A stretch of 64,000 nucleotides of DNA from a virus (IMGVR_UViG_3300010885_080919:1-64000), one strand, 5' to 3'; shown: positions 20,752-51,242, counted from the stretch's first letter. Translations and numbers: made by a program. The notes: generated by a model from the letters alone, not told the origin.

Positions 20752-22437
20752 GTGTTTAGTTTCAAAATATGGCTAGAAAATCATGTGCGGGATAATCCAG
20801 ATCCTTTTGTTGTTTTGGATTTGCCTAAATCGGCTTCCCAAAAAGAAGTCGAACAACAATACAAAAAATTAAGTATGCTTTACCAAAGACGTATTCCAAC
20901 TATGTCTGCGATTAATAAAGCTTATGAAAAAATAAATCAAGGATTAACTCACAAAACATCTCCAGAAACTCCAGAAACTATCCCAGTTGCTAATAGATTT
21001 AACAACAACAATAATTATTCTATTCTTGATGCTCGTTCTAAAATGATTGATTATACACCTGGTCAAAAAAAAGCATTACTAGAAATTCAAAAAATTATTG
21101 ATGGCAGTGAATCTGCGGTATCTTCTATTGCAAAACATTACCTACTAGCCGGATATGCAGGTACCGGCAAAACAACCCTTGCTGAAAATATAGTCAGATA
21201 TAGTATGTCTAAAGGAATGAAAGTTCGTGTCATAGCACCCACAAACAAAGCAGCAATGATTCTTAGCGAAAAACTAAGAGAATCAGGTGTAAATCTTAAT
21301 CCTGACTCGATCAGTACTATCCACAAAACAATATACGGAACCCCAGCATCATATTACAAAGACCGTCTTAACTGGGAGTTATCCTCTGGTCATGTTATTA
21401 ATGATACTGTATTTATCATAGATGAGTCATCTATGATAAACAAAACTACTATGAACGATTTATTAGAACTAACTAAATTTCATCATAATGTTTTGATTTT
21501 TATGGGGGATAGCTATCAACTACAACCAGTAGGACAAGATGCCGGATTGTTTCACGGAAATGTTTCTCAAATAGGGAGCAACAAAAGCGAACTGAAAGAA
21601 GTCAAACGACAAGCATTAGATAGCAATGTTTTAAAAATAGCGACTCTGGTTAGAGGTGACGCCAAACCCTACATACCATCAGAATCTATAGAAAATTTTA
21701 AGGTTTGCGAAACAAAAAAAGAATTTTTAGACAATTACAAAGAATCATTAAAAAACAATGAAGATGTAATTATGATTGTCGCTACTAATAAAGAAAGAAT
21801 GTTGATGAATTCGTTTGCCAGAGAAGTAAGGTTTGGCGACAATAAAACAATCTTAAACTCCAAAGAATCATTAATATCCTTGGCTAATTCTGAACATTTA
21901 AAAAACGGCGAAGTATTTACAATAGAAAATTTTAATATTCAAGAAGATATAAATATCGAAGAAATATCATCTAAAATTTATCTAGGTTCAGCAAAAATTC
22001 CTAAAAGTGGTTCGTGCTCAGGAGGTTCTTGTCCACTAGTTTTTATTCCCGACTTTGAAAAACCTGCATTTCCTCACCAATTTTTAATCGATGAATTAAA
22101 AAAAGAAATGTGGAAAGGAAACGGAAAATCTATTTTGTTAGAAAAATTAAAATCTAACAATATGATAGAAAATTCCGATGCTGGAAAAATAAAAATCAAT
22201 AAGGATACCGTGATCGCAACCTACGGCTATGCAGTCACAGCACATAAATCACAAGGATCACAATGGAAAAAAGTTTTCATTTACCAAAACTTCATGTCAG
22301 ATACATGGGATAATACAAGATGGTATTACACAGCTATTACTAGAAGCACAAAAGATGTTATCGTACTTAACTCAGGAAACAATATTCTTATTAGTCAAGA
22401 AGAAATAAATCAAAAAATACAAAATATTACCATTTGA
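20752..22437 (+). CDS. SF1B Dda/RecD-like helicase with N-terminal J-domain-like region
   Basis: GYAGTGKT, IAPTNKAA, IIDESSM, GDSYQLQPV, YGYAVTAHKSQGS, YTAITR. Confidence 0.9.
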   Translation: MFSFKIWLENHVRDNPDPFVVLDLPKSASQKEVEQQYKKLSMLYQRRIPTMSAINKAYEKINQGLTHKTSPETPETIPVANRFNNNNNYSILDARSKMIDYTPGQKKALLEIQKIIDGSESAVSSIAKHYLLAGYAGTGKTTLAENIVRYSMSKGMKVRVIAPTNKAAMILSEKLRESGVNLNPDSISTIHKTIYGTPASYYKDRLNWELSSGHVINDTVFIIDESSMINKTTMNDLLELTKFHHNVLIFMGDSYQLQPVGQDAGLFHGNVSQIGSNKSELKEVKRQALDSNVLKIATLVRGDAKPYIPSESIENFKVCETKKEFLDNYKESLKNNEDVIMIVATNKERMLMNSFAREVRFGDNKTILNSKESLISLANSEHLKNGEVFTIENFNIQEDINIEEISSKIYLGSAKIPKSGSCSGGSCPLVFIPDFEKPAFPHQFLIDELKKEMWKGNGKSILLEKLKSNNMIENSDAGKIKINKDTVIATYGYAVTAHKSQGSQWKKVFIYQNFMSDTWDNTRWYYTAITRSTKDVIVLNSGNNILISQEEINQKIQNITI

Positions 22438-22681: not shown

Positions 22682-24082
22682 TCATTCAAACTCCTTCAAT
22701 TCGACTTCATGACCCTGTTCTTTTAATATCTTCATTCTCTTTTTAGAATGTTTTTGCAAATAGTCGTTTATTTCAAACATAAAGTCGTAATAATTTAAAA
22801 TTTCTTTGTCATCTGCTGTTCTCAGCCCTCTTCCCATCCTCTGTACGATTTGATGGTCTGCTTGACCTCCTGCTGCGTTTATAAGATTGTGAATAAAAAC
22901 ATTTATGCCCGTGTTGAAGATCTGTTGAGTAGCTATGGCAACGCACTTTTCTGATTTCTGCAATTCATTTATAACACTTTTTCTTGTTTTAGAATCATCT
23001 TTTCCCTGAACCCAAAGGCTATCTGGAAGAAGACCATGCAAAGAATCCCCATGAGCTATTCTGTCAACCAGAATCAATGTTCTTCCAGTTTGCTGTTTAG
23101 CTAATTTAACAACCATTTTGTGGAAGTACAAAGACTCAGCTATTCCTCTTGTGACTGCATCTAAATAGATATCATGTGGAATCTGAGGCTCTCTTACAGG
23201 ATAAAATATACATTTAGATTTCGAAAGAATGCCACGGTTTTGTAGTTCTGCCGTAGTCAATATGCCAGTTTCTGCTGATTTGACTTTCAAAATTGGACCA
23301 AAATAACCTCTTACACTAAACTTCTGCACATTATCTTTCCCGCCAAATTTAAAAGGGGTCGCACTAACAGCAACCCGAACATCAGCTTCTTTCAACTTCC
23401 TGTACACTGCTTTTGGCAAAGCACTCATCATATCGTGGATTTCGTCCACAATAAGAACTTTTATTTTAGGTAGTAGTTTTTCAACTTTAGCAATCGATTG
23501 TACGCTGGCCACAGTGATCACATTAGGCTTTACCGACCCTCCCCAGACATTTCCAACATTTGGAAATCCCATTTTAATCAATTCGTCGTAATTTTGTTGG
23601 GCAAGACTTAGCCTATTTTGTAGCAGCAATATAGGCGTATTAGGAGCAAGGGTCTTTATAATTCCCAACATTATCAATGATTTGCCAGCAGATGTAGGAG
23701 CAAATATAATTCCTCTTCTGTGCTTGATCACCTGATTGATCAACTCTACCTGATAGTCTCTTAAAATCAGTGATTCATCATTTAAAAAATTCTCACCTAT
23801 GGAGCTAACATCAAATTTTGTCGGAATTCGAGAGTCTTCTACTGTGTATTGTGCGTTATTGTGTTTTAAGACGGCACTTACTTCTGGAAGTAGGCCTGTT
23901 AAGAATTTTCCTTTTTCTATATCAAAAAAATTTATAAATCCGTCCCATTTTTTCATCTTATAGGCACGGTTATGGAAATAATTCTTATCTCTGAATCTGA
24001 GTCTATCCCATAGATCTTTTTTTACAGCGTTGTTATTTGACAAAAAATACGAATAATCGTTAGTTATCTTTAGTATGTTCAT
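22682..24082 (-). CDS. uvsW: UvsW-like SF2 DNA/RNA-DNA helicase
   Basis: KWDGFINFF, LRDYQ, APTSAGKS, DEIH, SATP, QRMGRGLR. Confidence 0.88.
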   Translation of the reverse strand: MNILKITNDYSYFLSNNNAVKKDLWDRLRFRDKNYFHNRAYKMKKWDGFINFFDIEKGKFLTGLLPEVSAVLKHNNAQYTVEDSRIPTKFDVSSIGENFLNDESLILRDYQVELINQVIKHRRGIIFAPTSAGKSLIMLGIIKTLAPNTPILLLQNRLSLAQQNYDELIKMGFPNVGNVWGGSVKPNVITVASVQSIAKVEKLLPKIKVLIVDEIHDMMSALPKAVYRKLKEADVRVAVSATPFKFGGKDNVQKFSVRGYFGPILKVKSAETGILTTAELQNRGILSKSKCIFYPVREPQIPHDIYLDAVTRGIAESLYFHKMVVKLAKQQTGRTLILVDRIAHGDSLHGLLPDSLWVQGKDDSKTRKSVINELQKSEKCVAIATQQIFNTGINVFIHNLINAAGGQADHQIVQRMGRGLRTADDKEILNYYDFMFEINDYLQKHSKKRMKILKEQGHEVELKEFE

Positions 24083-24782
24083 TTTTTAGCTCATATGGAA
24101 ATAGTTTTTTAAATAGGTCTATAACCTCTTCATTTATACATTCTTTATAAAGAATAGGATCAAAATTCATTTTAGAATAATCTTCTTTTGACAATATAGA
24201 CTTCATATACGGGGATATTACTAGATAATACAGGCTTATATTACCAAAATTTATCCAATTGAGCAAGCTAGATTTAAGCTTTTTATAATCCTCTATAGTC
24301 GGATTTGAGCCAATATTTTTTTCAATAAATGTTTTTGTTTTCGAAATCTCATTTATTGCCTTTACAGCTCCTAATCTATTGTATTTCATAGGATTAGCGG
24401 CTGGTGCTTTGATTTTTGAATCAAATCTTTTTTTCCATAATTTCCATCTTTTCCAAGCTTTGTCTCCAACCAAGCACATTGGATCAATTAAAATCAAAGG
24501 GTTGTTTTTCAATTGATATCTTAAAATTTCTAATTGTGCTTGAATATAAATCTTATATTCGCTTTCGGGGATCAGGCCTTTTGTTTCTCTTTGAAGTTTA
24601 TAGCATATTTTGAATATTAGAGATTTTCTAGGATCTCCAGCCTTTAATTTCGTATGTTTGTAGTTTGGAAAGTATTTTTCACATAAAGCTACCCAAATCT
24701 CAGATAGCTGAAAAGCGGATGCTTCTGATTCGTCTAGTTTGTATTTTTCTATAGTAGTCATAGGTTTTCTTCGTTTTGCCAA
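24060..24782 (-). CDS. Hypothetical protein upstream of uvsW
   Basis: Probable TTG start after AAGGAG; overlaps uvsW start. Confidence 0.75.
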   Translation of the reverse strand: MAKRRKPMTTIEKYKLDESEASAFQLSEIWVALCEKYFPNYKHTKLKAGDPRKSLIFKICYKLQRETKGLIPESEYKIYIQAQLEILRYQLKNNPLILIDPMCLVGDKAWKRWKLWKKRFDSKIKAPAANPMKYNRLGAVKAINEISKTKTFIEKNIGSNPTIEDYKKLKSSLLNWINFGNISLYYLVISPYMKSILSKEDYSKMNFDPILYKECINEEVIDLFKKLFPYELKNEHTKDN

Positions 24783-24835
24783 TTGTACGCTCCTTGTCTT
24801 GAATATCAAAATATCTATTTAAAGAAAGAAAAAAT

Positions 24836-24863
24836 TTGACTTTTGATCAGGATTTAGTATATT
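24836..24863 (+). promoter_or_regulatory. Sigma70-type promoter for the putative ncRNA
   Basis: TTGACT-16 nt-TATATT. Confidence 0.6.
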
Positions 24864-24869
24864 GATATT

Positions 24870-25247
24870 GGACACCGAAAGGTGCTTATCTCGTTAAACT
24901 ATATTAAACACTGAGTTGGACGCTCTCTCGTCCTTTGAATTGATGAAGGGCTGTACTCCCTGGATTGAATTCAAATGAAAAAAACTTTGGAGAGCCTGGA
25001 CACGGGTTGAACCTTCGTATCATTACGATCAATGCTTTACAAGCGGCATTCGATCTCCAAATCAATGAAAGTTATATTCAGAACACTAGATTACGGTTTT
25101 CACTTGTCACGAGGAAGTGAAGTGTCTGGGTTTAAGACATTGAATAAGTACACTGATTCTACAGTTAAGATTCTAGACATGGTTCAGGTTATTAGAATAA
25201 CATCTAATAATTGAAATAAACAATTGAATTATTTTCAATTGTTTTTT
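24870..25247 (+). ncRNA. Putative structured non-coding RNA of unknown family
   Basis: About ten helices found by eye (listed in findings), upstream promoter, downstream hairpin plus T-run, no credible ORF. Confidence 0.65.
25218..25247 (+). terminator. Putative intrinsic terminator (AT-rich stem)
   Basis: AAACAATTGAA-TTATT-TTCAATTGTTT followed by TTT. Confidence 0.5.
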
Positions 25248-25329
25248 CTATGAAACATATACAGAACCATTCTGCTTGGTGGAATATGTTATAATTTATG
25301 ATTGTACAATCATACTTTTTTTCAAGAAC

Positions 25330-25357
25330 TTGCAAAAAACTGATTATTTTGTATACT
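25330..25357 (+). promoter_or_regulatory. Sigma70-type promoter upstream of the PolA-like gene
   Basis: TTGCAA-16 nt-TATACT. Confidence 0.55.
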
Positions 25358-25395
25358 GATGTCAGGTAGAAAATAAAAAAAAGAATTAGTTTTTT

Positions 25396-26706
25396 ATGAA
25401 TCAAGAAGCAATTGATCTTTTTTCAAGCATAAGCAATCAAAGCGTCTTTGTGCTTTTTAATCCTGCCGTTTTTGATTTTACAGATAAAAATTCTCAAAAA
25501 GAGATTCAAATTTATCTTCAAGACGGAAGAAACGTAAACATTGCGTTAACTGAGCAAAACACTCCGTTTATAGCATCGATTTTGAAACTATCGATATTTT
25601 CTAAAGGAATGAAGATCCTTGTTTGGGATTGGAAAAATATAGCCACCTACATTCTGGCCAAAACCAATAAAAATTACATTGTTGATGGGGTTATTATTGA
25701 TTTAAAGATCTTAGAATCATATGTTGGTCGTAAACTAAAACCTCCAAAAAGCTTAAATGAAGCCCTAATTCGACTAAAAGATCTGGTTTCTAGCGGATTA
25801 TGGAAAGAAATAGAACCTATTTATAAGAATCTACATCTTCCACTTAGCACTTTTACAATACCTAGATTAGAAACAACGGCCCTAATAGACGTTTTAACGG
25901 GCAAGAAGGTTTATGCTCACTATGAGATAGATGGACAGGAGAACGGCCGTCTACGGTGCTCACAGGAGTTTAATGAGGGTTTTGTACCTCACGCCATGCG
26001 TCCTCTGGTTAAAGAAAATTTAAAACCAAGGAGTTTTGAAGAATTATTCTTGGTTTTTGATTTTAGAGCCATGGAGGTTTTTATGCTTTCTTGGCTAAGT
26101 CAAGATCCGCTTTTAAAAGAGCTAACAGAGCAGCCAGACATCTACTTCTCGCTATACAGCAAACTCATTGGATCTGAGCCGCAAAAAAAAGATGATAGAG
26201 AATTAATTAAAAAAATGTTCTTGCCGGTTATATATGGTCAGTCGTCCTACATGCTAGGACAACGCTGCAACATCCCGAAAGAAGCTGCAGATTCAATTGT
26301 AGATCGTATAAATTCCTTATTTCCAACTGCTTTGGCTTGGATCAAAAACCAACAAAAGCAGCTACAGGAATTGGGATATTCCAAAGACATATTTGGAAAA
26401 CGCCGAACATTCGATGAAGGTAAAGAATATTTAGTTAGAAATTTCTGTATACAATCACCAGCGGCGGTTGTATGTTTAGAAAAATTAAATCAATTATATT
26501 TTGCCTTTAAAAATAAAACTGATATCGCTTTTACTGTACATGACGGATATGCTGTTTATGCCAATAAAGAAAATTGGAAAGACATATTCAAGATTGGACA
26601 AGAAGTTTTATCCAGTGAAAGTGAACTTTGTCCTAAGTTGCGACTAAAAGTTACATGTCGTGGTGGAAGAAATTTAAATGATCTAAAAACTTTAAACAAA
26701 AGATAA
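25396..26706 (+). CDS. Family A DNA polymerase-like protein, thumb deleted, exonuclease domain degenerate
   Basis: NGRL, motif A DFRAME, motif B RELIKKMFLPVIYG, NFCIQSPAA, motif C VHDG. Confidence 0.88.
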   Translation: MNQEAIDLFSSISNQSVFVLFNPAVFDFTDKNSQKEIQIYLQDGRNVNIALTEQNTPFIASILKLSIFSKGMKILVWDWKNIATYILAKTNKNYIVDGVIIDLKILESYVGRKLKPPKSLNEALIRLKDLVSSGLWKEIEPIYKNLHLPLSTFTIPRLETTALIDVLTGKKVYAHYEIDGQENGRLRCSQEFNEGFVPHAMRPLVKENLKPRSFEELFLVFDFRAMEVFMLSWLSQDPLLKELTEQPDIYFSLYSKLIGSEPQKKDDRELIKKMFLPVIYGQSSYMLGQRCNIPKEAADSIVDRINSLFPTALAWIKNQQKQLQELGYSKDIFGKRRTFDEGKEYLVRNFCIQSPAAVVCLEKLNQLYFAFKNKTDIAFTVHDGYAVYANKENWKDIFKIGQEVLSSESELCPKLRLKVTCRGGRNLNDLKTLNKR

Positions 26707-26717
26707 AGGAATTTTAT

Positions 26718-27278
26718 ATGTTAGATATTTGCAATAATTTTAGAATAAATGAAGAAGAGTTTTCTGAACTAGATAAAAAATTCGGCAAACTTTGTTGGCA
26801 CGCTTCCCACGAACTAAAAAAGAAAAATTCAAATAACAACTTCACCGATGATGCAGAAGACATAAAGCAAGAACTGCTTATGAGCATGCTAAGAGCAGGA
26901 AGCTATTACAAAAGACAAATTTATATTGAAAAGTCTTTAGAAGTAGCAAAAAAATATATCGAAGACGAATTGGTCAAAAACATCGTATACGAATTAGATA
27001 ATTTGTGGAATAACCGAACAAGACACGGAGCGAATAGACAAAAATTCGGCAAACATCAAGAAAACATGCTGGAACTTATAATCAAAAAGAATGTGCCAAC
27101 GGACGAACAACCCGACAAACAACAGAACTTGAAAATAGATACTAAATTTGCAACATACTGCAAAGCCATTGTTTGGAATGGACAAAAAAGCATGGGCAAA
27201 AAGATAACAAGAGAAAAAAGCATCAGATCAGGTCAGGTAAGCCTTTCAGAATACGATTATCTTCAACGTACTTTGTAG
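26718..27278 (+). CDS. Sigma-70 region-2-like protein without region 4 (candidate late sigma factor)
   Basis: DAEDIKQELLMSMLRA ... KFATYCKAIVWN ... VSLSE. Confidence 0.55.
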   Translation: MLDICNNFRINEEEFSELDKKFGKLCWHASHELKKKNSNNNFTDDAEDIKQELLMSMLRAGSYYKRQIYIEKSLEVAKKYIEDELVKNIVYELDNLWNNRTRHGANRQKFGKHQENMLELIIKKNVPTDEQPDKQQNLKIDTKFATYCKAIVWNGQKSMGKKITREKSIRSGQVSLSEYDYLQRTL

Positions 27279-27327
27279 TTGATTCTTTCTGGCGTTTTGT
27301 TTATACAAGTAAAAAAAGGAGACGTAT

Positions 27328-28878
27328 TTGAGAGAGCTAACGCCAGAAGAACAAGCACAGCTAGAAGACCTAACAGATCCAGATGTAATTAAACCTAAAT
27401 TTTCTTGGGATGATACATTTCAAAGAAAATTATTAGGAATGCTTTTGCTTGATCCCCATATGCTTGTACAAGCTATGGACAAAATCAAACCGGAGTATTT
27501 TTCTAATGAGGCTCATGTATCGATTTCTAAAATACTACTTGATCACTTTAAAACTCACAAAGCTATCCCCGAGAAGTGGATTCTTGAACAAGAACTTAAG
27601 AATGTTCTGAAGGACGCAGAAAAGAGCGTTCAATTACATTATTTGTCTGAACTGAACTGCGTTTACGATTATTACGTTCCGGGTTTAGAAGCAAGAGAAT
27701 ACCTGATTGAAAAAGTCACGTATTTTGCAAAAGTCCAAGCTATAAAAATTGCATTTCATTCGTCTCTGGAAAAGATGCAAGAAGCACCTGAAGATGAAAA
27801 GACTTGGAATTTTATTTATGAAAAGCTTCGAGAGGCAATGCTGATAGACCGTTCTTATGAACCTGGTTTAGAATACTTTCTACAACTAGACGAAATGTTC
27901 AGAAGAATGGAAGATGTTTTTGTTGGAAAAGAAAGATTTACTAGCGGTTTTGAAAGTATAGACAAAGCCTTGACTGGTGGTGGTCTTTTTGTCGGTCAAA
28001 TAGCAAGTTGGATCGGTTTGCCAGGAACAGGAAAAAGCTTAGCTCTTGTTAGAGCCGCCGTGCAAAATGTTATTCTTGGTCATAAAGTTTTATATCTAAC
28101 AATGGAGATGGATGAGCTTGGAATTGCACAGCGATTCACTTCTCAATTAGCAAAAGTAGATATTAATAATCTAAGAGATTCTAGAGAACAAATCGAAAAA
28201 ACAATCGCAGACTTCGGCAAAGACAAAGAGGATAAAAATCTTTTACATGTAAAGCAATTTCCTGGCGGCGTTATGGACGTTAACGGCATACGAGCGTTCA
28301 TGGCTCAGCTAGAACTTAGAGGATGGAAGCCTAATCTTCTAATTGTTGATTATGTGGGAGAAATGAAAGATGATCCAACCGTCAAGAAATACGAGTCTGC
28401 ATATAGAATATTGCGAGACTTAAGAGGATTCGGGGTAGAAAAAGGTCACTGCACATTTACCTGCGTACAGCCAAACGCAACAGCGGCAAAGCTTGAAATA
28501 AATCAATATATCGATGAGTCCAACATTGGAACATCTTTTGATCAGTTTAAACCTCTTGATGCTTTTTGGTCTATAAACCAGCAAACCATTGAAAAAGATG
28601 CCGAGATAGGTCGAGGATTTGTAATCAAGCATAGAAATGGTAGAAGCAGATTTCCTTTTAAAATCGGCTTTGATTTTTCTCTTGGCACCTTGGATATGTG
28701 GGAAATATCAGATGATAATTATCGATCTAAAATGAGCATGATACAAGAAAAGAAAACAAACGAAGTTGTCAGTGTAGATGGCTCCACGAAAAACGAAAAG
28801 AAGAAAAGAACATTCAAGCCAAATGCGAGTTTAGAAGGCATTATAAAGCCTATCGATTCAGAAGATTACGAAGCTTGA
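27328..28878 (+). CDS. dnaB: DnaB/gp41-like replicative helicase
   Basis: TSGFESID, GLPGTGKS, YLTMEM, LIVDY, KHRNG. Confidence 0.92.
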   Translation: MRELTPEEQAQLEDLTDPDVIKPKFSWDDTFQRKLLGMLLLDPHMLVQAMDKIKPEYFSNEAHVSISKILLDHFKTHKAIPEKWILEQELKNVLKDAEKSVQLHYLSELNCVYDYYVPGLEAREYLIEKVTYFAKVQAIKIAFHSSLEKMQEAPEDEKTWNFIYEKLREAMLIDRSYEPGLEYFLQLDEMFRRMEDVFVGKERFTSGFESIDKALTGGGLFVGQIASWIGLPGTGKSLALVRAAVQNVILGHKVLYLTMEMDELGIAQRFTSQLAKVDINNLRDSREQIEKTIADFGKDKEDKNLLHVKQFPGGVMDVNGIRAFMAQLELRGWKPNLLIVDYVGEMKDDPTVKKYESAYRILRDLRGFGVEKGHCTFTCVQPNATAAKLEINQYIDESNIGTSFDQFKPLDAFWSINQQTIEKDAEIGRGFVIKHRNGRSRFPFKIGFDFSLGTLDMWEISDDNYRSKMSMIQEKKTNEVVSVDGSTKNEKKKRTFKPNASLEGIIKPIDSEDYEA

Positions 28879-50971: not shown

Positions 50972-51242
50972 GGCCCCATCGTCTAACGGTTAGGACAGCA
51001 GACTTTCAAAAGGGAGTGCCTAAAGAGAAATCTTTAGAGTAGAATCGCTCAAAGTCGGTGAACGCTTTAAAATGCTAATACCGAGCCAAGCCTAAGTGAT
51101 TAGGAAGGTGTAGAGACTTGACGGGCGACACCTAAAGCAACAGCTATGGTGAAGGTAAAGTCCACAGACAAATCGAAAGAGCAACGAAAGTTGCAGTGTC
51201 TAGGTCAATCTGCTAATCGGAGTTCGATTCTCCGTGGGGTCA
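50972..51242 (+). tRNA. tRNA-Glu(UUC); exons 50972-51005 and 51205-51242; CCA not encoded
   Basis: Acceptor GGCCCCA/TGGGGTC, anticodon arm GCAGA-CTTTCAA-TCTGC after splicing, T arm CGGAG-TTCGATT-CTCCG. Confidence 0.9.
51006..51204 (+). mobile_element. Group I self-splicing intron (199 nt, no ORF) in the tRNA anticodon
   Basis: P1 ACUUUC/GGGAGU with U.G at the splice site, P/Q AAAGUCGGUGAA / AAUACCGAG, R GUAGAGACU, S AAGGUAAAGUCC, terminal G. Confidence 0.88.

Follow-up and report, generated by a model that had tools for sequence, protein, structure and literature searches.

The non-coding gap in front of a family A DNA polymerase (PolA) gene in IMGVR_UViG_3300010885_080919, a virus record of the IMG/VR database, holds a genuine, previously uncatalogued structured RNA, and this RNA and the polymerase, which lacks its thumb, form a conserved neighborhood. 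The DNA analyzed, referred to throughout as the window, comprised the first 64,000 nucleotides (nt) of the 98,320-bp record, for which standard code 11 was suitable. CheckV estimated the record to be ~20% complete, so it was taken to be a fragment of a huge freshwater phage, and its closest public phage record, found by tblastn of PolA against 50,697 phage records, was the 595-kb uncultured phage LR756511. As to function, we favor, with a probability of roughly 0.4, a cis-acting structured leader or regulator of the operon of PolA, a sigma-like protein and the DnaB helicase, within what would be a replication-control region.

Identification of a Conserved Structured RNA

An earlier reading of the window from its sequence alone (the sequence-only reading) had described its largest non-coding gap as the site of a promoter-driven, heavily base-paired RNA of ~375 nt. 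The gap did prove to be the largest internal stretch of the window without an open reading frame (ORF) of at least 70 amino acids (aa) (Table 1). The window copy on its own folded only modestly better than shuffled sequences on either strand (z -2.5 for the + strand and -3.2 for the - strand), and the case for the RNA is therefore a comparative one. PolA relatives were gathered from IMG/VR and from JGI metagenomes, and their upstream gaps aligned with that of the window. In iterated nhmmer searches, 27 loci proved to have the element upstream of PolA, and after a further scan the set comprised 18 distinct sequences, all from huge phages, which are the 18 distinct loci referred to below.

A covariance model of the 5' domain of the RNA (R1; window positions 24903-25066) scored the closer copies at 85-150 bits. 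In the R1 alignment 77% of the pair cells were paired, versus 59% in shuffles, and 32 of the 38 pairs had changes on both sides; not one of 500 shuffles reached these pairing values, and slid registers did not come near them either. Helix P4, for example, occurred across loci as UUUGGAGA/UCUCCAAA, CUGUGU/ACACAG, UGCGAG/CUCGCA and UUGAGCA/UGCUCAA. The 3' domain was backed by RNAalifold analysis of five close copies. In addition, the UGUAC of the P3 loop pairs with a GUACA beyond the 3' domain to give a long-range pseudoknot, and these two segments covaried across loci as AUGC/GCAU, GUGC/GCAC, GCGU/ACGC, GAUACC/GGUAUC and GUACCC/GGGUAC. The complementarity of loop and tail was 5.8 for matched and 4.5 for mismatched combinations, and the observed sum was reached in none of 20,000 permutations. 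The + strand was favored because G-U pairs outnumbered A-C pairs (50 versus 27) and because a sigma-70-like promoter stands in front of the RNA.

The gap had no match in Rfam 15 at gathering thresholds, with only chance-level rows up to an E-value of 10, and a scan for tRNA and tmRNA found none. A helix GAGT/ACTC (24913-24916 with 24955-24958) put forward in the sequence-only reading was rejected: by eye, its 5' GAG stays constant while the partner varies, and part of the loop forms the pseudoknot instead.

Together, these data indicated that the upstream structure of thumbless PolA homologs is conserved and covarying in the 18 distinct loci. The folded RNA proposed earlier is backed by covariation, with a core of ~285 nt. 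Its promoter is a promoter-like site, and such matches were not enriched over shuffles. It is rare to find a large RNA whose tertiary fold is conserved, and such RNAs have often proved to act as ribozymes or riboswitches or to belong to cellular machines. The RNA described here combines strong covariation and absence from Rfam with a tie to replication genes in uncultured huge phages.

Linkage of the RNA to the Polymerase

A pattern scan of IMG/VR that was independent of PolA returned 80 loci, and R1 accepted 11. Every one of these 11 copies was located 380-560 nt upstream of a PolA homolog and on the same strand. In every carrier the RNA lay 5' of PolA and shared its orientation, and it was single-copy both in the contig and in a 381-kb relative. 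Where an extra gene of 310-322 aa stood between the RNA and the gene of the conserved 249-aa protein that normally precedes it (L005/L007 and L013), the RNA still adjoined PolA.

The converse did not hold, as thumbless PolA with its 186-aa neighbor also occurred without a recognizable RNA. R1 found no RNA anywhere in LR756511, in which a 387-aa gene abuts PolA, and neither R1 with its filters off nor nhmmer --max found a copy in L173-L184, in the soil loci L025 and L036, or in L031, L032 or L002. Genes on the same strand extend as far as PolA in L002, L175 and L176, leaving neither a large gap nor an RNA, and in L178 a small opposite-strand ORF abuts PolA. In L173 and L179-L184 PolA heads a unit divergent from the 249-aa gene, with a gap of 435-1215 nt. 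The proposal that RNA and polymerase act as a pair stands as regards adjacency (11/11 copies from the scan independent of PolA), but the association is not obligatory, as LR756511 and the distant loci make clear, and a functional pairing is hypothetical.

Several other elements were observed at or near the position of the RNA. A different conserved non-coding block occupied its slot in L179:1709-2470, L180:1698-2473 and L181:1679-2491 (e.g., GGGGUUAAAAACUCCCC and UUUCCAUGUAACCAGAU); this block includes some compensatory pairs, and it may represent either another RNA family or a strongly diverged form of the RNA. In the RNA-less loci L175 (1790-2434) and L176 (1423-1980 and 1993-2424, a tandem duplicate), small proteins of 143-214 aa, ~60% identical, were encoded directly before PolA. 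An ADP-ribosyltransferase of the polyvalent-protein type (ART-PolyVal, E-value 2e-28; L032:1392-2495) was the upstream neighbor of PolA in L032, and a TnpB/Cas12f-like gene was inserted further upstream of the thumbless PolA in L178 (215-1780). The 387-aa gene in the slot of L002 matched no Pfam or PHROG family and had no homolog in the other loci, and the lead that the RNA had there been swapped for a primase-like enzyme was not confirmed.

Transcription Signals and the Spacer

Ahead of the RNA, hexamers comparable to those of the promoter-like site of the window were seen by eye in most homologs. In five of the 18 loci (the window, L003, L013 and L020/L021), a terminator-like hairpin followed by a run of T separates the RNA core from PolA; the other 13 had none. 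Further downstream, a conserved motif followed by TATAAT-like bases was recognized by eye in 18/18 loci, and the spacer also holds a conserved small hairpin with a UAAAC loop (by eye). The palindromic character claimed for the AT-rich DNA after the RNA was verified, in the form of a perfect 18-bp palindrome that is unique in the 98-kb contig; near-copies were seen by eye at the same place in L010 (two copies) and L016, and the palindrome counts among the conserved spacer pieces of the closest relatives (by eye). Sites similar to the second promoter-like site were likewise found by eye in L003, L004, L010 and L011.

Table 1. Features of the RNA locus and adjoining genes, in window coordinates.
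Feature	Position	Strand	Remarks
Dda-like superfamily 1 (SF1) helicase	20752-22437	+	
UvsW-like superfamily 2 (SF2) helicase, 466 aa	22682-24082	-	Pfam ResIII/DEAD/Helicase_C
Conserved 249-aa protein	24060-24809	-	No known family; divergent from the RNA
ORF-free gap, 586 nt	24810-25395		Largest internal stretch without an ORF of at least 70 aa
Sigma-70-type promoter-like site	24836-24863	+	TTGACT-16-TATATT; 10/12 consensus matches; precedes the RNA
Structured RNA core, ~285 nt	~24870-25153	+	Comparative evidence; multi-helix junction and long-range pseudoknot
5' GNRA hairpin	24873-24884	+	
P2	24918-24933	+	
P3	24934-24975	+	
A-rich joiner	24978-24985	+	
P4	24986-24993 with 25054-25061	+	Encloses P5, P6 and P7
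P5	24994-25007	+	
P6	25015-25028	+	
P7	25031-25050	+	
3' domain	25063-25142	+	
Pseudoknot	24952-24956 with 25148-25152	+	P3 loop with 3' tail
Terminator-like hairpin	25218-25247	+	AT-rich, followed by T run
Conserved motif	25263-25282		..AACC..YGGT.., then TATAAT-like bases
Perfect 18-bp palindrome	25297-25314		Operator-like
Second promoter-like site	25330-25357	+	TTGCAA-16-TATACT; ~40 nt before PolA start
Thumbless PolA, 436 aa	25396-26706	+	Exonuclease-like N-terminal domain; proofreading motifs look degenerate
186-aa all-helical protein	26718-27278	+	Resembles sigma-70 region 2; downstream partner of PolA
DnaB-type replicative helicase, 516 aa	27328-28878	+	Pfam DnaB and DnaB_C; PHROG 19, E-value 1.6e-52

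The Thumbless Polymerase

PolA matched PF00476 (DNA_pol_A) with 87.9 bits against a cut-off of 34.3, over profile positions 104-379 only. The thumb of family A polymerases (helices H-I, ~100 residues) was absent, with ~105 residues replaced by ~8. In the family profile A5 (79 sequences), positions 142-163 correspond to the pre-thumb helix of KlenTaq and the alignment resumes at 171, after the thumb, so that 8 query residues lie between those aligned with KlenTaq chain residues 157 and 267. The AlphaFold2 (AF2) model (pLDDT, the predicted local distance difference test score, of 96.4) has a short beta hairpin at the thumb site, and 394 of its 436 residues aligned with KlenTaq (chain 295-832; Z 32.5, root-mean-square deviation 2.8).

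The catalytic center appeared to be intact. Across the 79 sequences D222 (motif A), K272 (motif B), G281 and D383 (motif C) were invariant, the steric-gate E227, R268 (motif B) and H382 were nearly so, and Y280 (motif B) was in the consensus. Motif C reads HDG rather than HDE and a Leu occupies the F762 position; the usual dNTP-binding residues are retained. The fold of the N-terminal ~118 residues aligned with the exonuclease-like domain of KlenTaq and Bst, and the Exo I Glu and Exo II Asp were missing when the A5 alignment was read by eye (D-F-T and W-N-I-K-x-L, respectively). These profile alignments, model and conserved residues agreed with the sequence-only reading in showing a thumbless PolA with intact catalytic motifs. 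In our view PolA is a family A enzyme, predicted to be catalytically competent, whose thumb and apparently also proofreading activity have been lost. The deletion is family-wide, as the thumbless family comprised at least 216 clusters at E-values below 1e-30, nearly all of ~430 aa; a Pol I-type enzyme lacking the grip on the duplex has thus been widely kept.

The contig and two relatives also encode a DnaE-type Pol III alpha, and the relatives a DnaG-type primase, which argues that PolA is an accessory enzyme and not the main replicase. The DnaE match in the contig was split between ORFs of 470 aa and 916 aa that are ~3.5 kb apart and lie beyond the window (G000:C1:83070-87427). In the 381-kb relative the halves are ~10 kb apart, and LR756511 has a single ORF of 1183 aa. 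An intein, an intron or inserted genes could account for the split.

The 186-aa Partner

A homolog of the 186-aa protein (51-82% identity) was encoded directly after PolA in the loci with downstream DNA, with the exceptions of L031, where an unrelated ORF follows PolA, and L032, which has no ORF of at least 90 aa there. The protein is more conserved than PolA itself (32-70% identity), a difference that would point to strong constraint by an interaction partner. Prediction of a complex between the two gave a score of 0.00, which counts neither for nor against binding.

The AF2 model (pLDDT 81) consists of helices with no strands. About 20 of its top 50 structural neighbors were sigma region-2 domains, at Z-scores of 6-7.5 that are within the range helical bundles reach by chance, and the Atlas leads were to Sigma70_r2. 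Against this, no sequence match to any sigma family was found in Pfam, NCBIfam or the PDB (the profile search of the PDB gave chance rows), and Foldseek of the model against the PDB returned nothing at an E-value of 0.001 or below. We regard the sigma-like label given in the sequence-only reading, and with it the resemblance of the modeled protein to sigma-70 region 2, as weakly supported. The pairing of a thumbless PolA with a small sigma-like partner raises the question of how these phages start or finish DNA synthesis.

Possible Roles of the RNA

We favor a role for the RNA as a 5' leader most of all because most relatives have no terminator between the RNA and PolA. If this is correct, host RNA polymerase would transcribe the RNA early from the sigma-70-type promoter, in the direction of the downstream genes, and the RNA would be the structured 5' portion of an early transcript usually extending into the PolA, sigma-like and DnaB genes. 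It would act there in cis as a protein- or ligand-responsive regulator of the operon, and in this phage the transcript might be attenuated by the hairpin preceding the AT-rich spacer (25218-25247). PolA would be a distributive helper polymerase, filling short gaps or making a short initiation stretch beside the DnaE replicase, the DnaB helicase and, in relatives, the DnaG primase. There is precedent for such control in the T4 gene 32 and gene 43 leaders, in which a structured upstream RNA allows a replication protein to control its own synthesis.

The gene layout is consistent with a leader, in that a large gap occurs where PolA heads a divergent unit, and no gap or RNA occurs where same-strand genes precede PolA. 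As for the features of a riboswitch or attenuator, the conserved fold is present and the terminator-like hairpin is found in 5/18 loci only. Several observations weigh against a leader. The promoter-like matches were not enriched over shuffles in this AT-rich region; with 160-365 nt between them, the core and the start codon are far apart for a classical riboswitch or translational operator; and no ligand or binding protein has been identified for the RNA. In the window, moreover, the DNA before PolA has a good terminator-like hairpin as well as a second promoter-like site, and the RNA may for that reason be a separate transcript in this phage.

The terminator-like hairpin of the window, together with the RNA's own promoter-like site, would also suit a free-standing, trans-acting early non-coding RNA whose function, for instance the binding of a host or phage protein, has nothing to do with PolA and whose location reflects only the conserved gene order of the clade. 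The ornate conserved fold and conserved loops are typical of protein-binding or catalytic RNAs, and the carriers all come from a single group of related huge phages that share their gene order. We nevertheless consider this explanation unlikely, given that most loci lack a terminator before PolA, that the RNA stays with PolA when the upstream neighbor changes, and that it is single-copy and always in the orientation of PolA. A ribonucleoprotein polymerase, in which the RNA would bind PolA and replace the grip of the thumb or serve as primer or template by analogy to retrons or telomerase, had been offered as one option in the sequence-only reading. The conserved adjacency and the missing thumb are the observations that speak for it. 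The thumb deletion, however, is common to the at least 216 clusters, including lineages without a recognizable RNA such as that of the 595-kb genome; the steric-gate Glu (E227) is retained along with the usual dNTP-binding residues; and neither a template-like repeat nor a conserved single-stranded template region was seen. This option accordingly found no support, and we judge it very improbable.

That the RNA belongs to a replication origin is possible, if somewhat unlikely. The folded transcript would form a persistent hybrid or R-loop in the AT-rich DNA with the palindrome, PolA would extend it briefly, DnaB would be loaded and DnaE would take over, on the model of RNA II and Pol I in ColE1 and of the T4 R-loop origins that are controlled by UvsW. 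The RNA is located at the divergent intergenic hub of a replication module (UvsW-like, Dda-like, PolA and DnaB), the unique palindrome and AT-rich DNA are downstream of it, and with DnaE as the replicase a Pol I-like starter is conceivable. On the other hand, the terminator-like hairpin precedes the AT-rich stretch in the window, related phages carry the same PolA without the RNA, and R-loop priming does not need a conserved tertiary fold with a pseudoknot. Cumulative GC skew, to which the sequence-only reading had pointed, does have a local minimum at the gap and, in the 381-kb relative, at the homologous locus (~71 kb), with a steady rise after it; the minimum is not global in either contig, however, and it coincides with a switch in gene orientation, both contigs being incomplete. 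An RNase HI gene does occur in one relative, two genes upstream of PolA (PF00075, E-value 4e-38; L175:1240-1779), but none was found in the contig or in two large relatives, which does not show its absence. The same limit applies to a FEN-type 5' nuclease, which was not found in the three records (contig and relatives).

In a more specific form of this idea, the RNA would be a dedicated replication starter that is made by host RNA polymerase, docks at the palindrome and AT-rich DNA, and is recognized and extended by PolA before handing over to DnaB and DnaE. We think this quite doubtful, although it would, if true, amount to a phage counterpart of ColE1 priming with a purpose-built polymerase. 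More broadly, an RNA that primes or controls replication would represent a new initiation scheme for large DNA phages.

Neighboring Genes

The other gene assignments of the sequence-only reading around the gap were corroborated. The SF2 helicase matched T4 UvsW (2oca_A) over nearly its full length (E-value 3e-13; query 20-437 on chain 21-457), and the downstream helicase was identified as DnaB by its Pfam and PHROG matches. The gene of no known family that diverges from the RNA encodes the 249-aa protein, for which no Pfam, PHROG or NCBIfam match was found and whose homologs sit upstream of the RNA and PolA in nearly all loci. Its resemblance to T4 gp59 was one of features only, and was not confirmed by a profile search of the PDB (chance rows). 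Elsewhere in the window, a group I intron scored above the Rfam gathering threshold at 50996-51185 (59.4 bits). ARAGORN found no tRNA in the window, which fits the intron-split tRNA proposed in the sequence-only reading.

Comparison with Known Systems

The polymerase resembles in outline the second PolAs of large phages, divPolA1 (thumb truncated) and divPolA2 (thumbless), described in Virol J 2024 (PMC11348598). These too are extra family A polymerases beside a regular replicase, with the thumb truncated or absent and the palm residues kept; their 3'-5' exonuclease is inactivated or missing, as the degenerate look of the PolA motifs would suggest here, and divPolA1 has replication genes downstream in a conserved arrangement (PMC11348598). 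The paper section in question mentions no upstream RNA. The tblastn search of phage records (E-value 1e-5) matched 35 records with PolA, none of them a Flavobacterium 'immuto' phage, and among the phage records the sigma-like partner was found in LR756511 only; PolA would thus appear to be a separate or very distant family from divPolA.

A reduced PolA with a small partner and a helicase is also known from SCCmec and other Bacillota elements, in which CcPol-MP-Cch2 (a PolA-SSB primase plus helicase) acts as a primase (PMC7581432, PMC10061031). The order of reduced PolA, small protein and helicase is shared, and CcPol has a shortened thumb and a partial exonuclease domain. In contrast to that system, the helicase here is of the DnaB type and relatives have a separate DnaG, and the partner is modeled as all helices and would therefore not be an MP-type protein with an oligonucleotide-binding (OB) fold. 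TV-Pols define the minimal family A core, and the passages on CcPol primases and TV-Pols mention no upstream RNA.

The 186-aa protein is comparable to minimal sigma factors of the T4 gp55 type, being of similar size (~185 aa), helical and similar to region 2 only, with no region 4; it differs in having no sequence match to any sigma family and Z-scores in the chance range of helical bundles. Among RNAs, GOLLD and ROOL (Rfam) are likewise large, highly structured phage or prophage RNAs of unknown function. The RNA here is smaller and tied to one gene context, and no Rfam model matches it even at an E-value of 10.

Like RNA II of ColE1, the RNA is folded, several hundred nt long and located by a possible start region, where a Pol I-type enzyme could extend it. 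In contrast to the ColE1 system, neither an RNase H site nor an antisense RNA I nor G/C runs that would form an RNA-DNA hybrid were identified here, RNase HI was not found in the phage, and the RNA has a pseudoknotted tertiary fold. The T4 gene 32 and gene 43 leaders share with the RNA its position as a structured element upstream of a replication gene and, in gene 32, a pseudoknot; compared with these leaders, the RNA is much larger and stands farther out, at 160-365 nt from the start codon.

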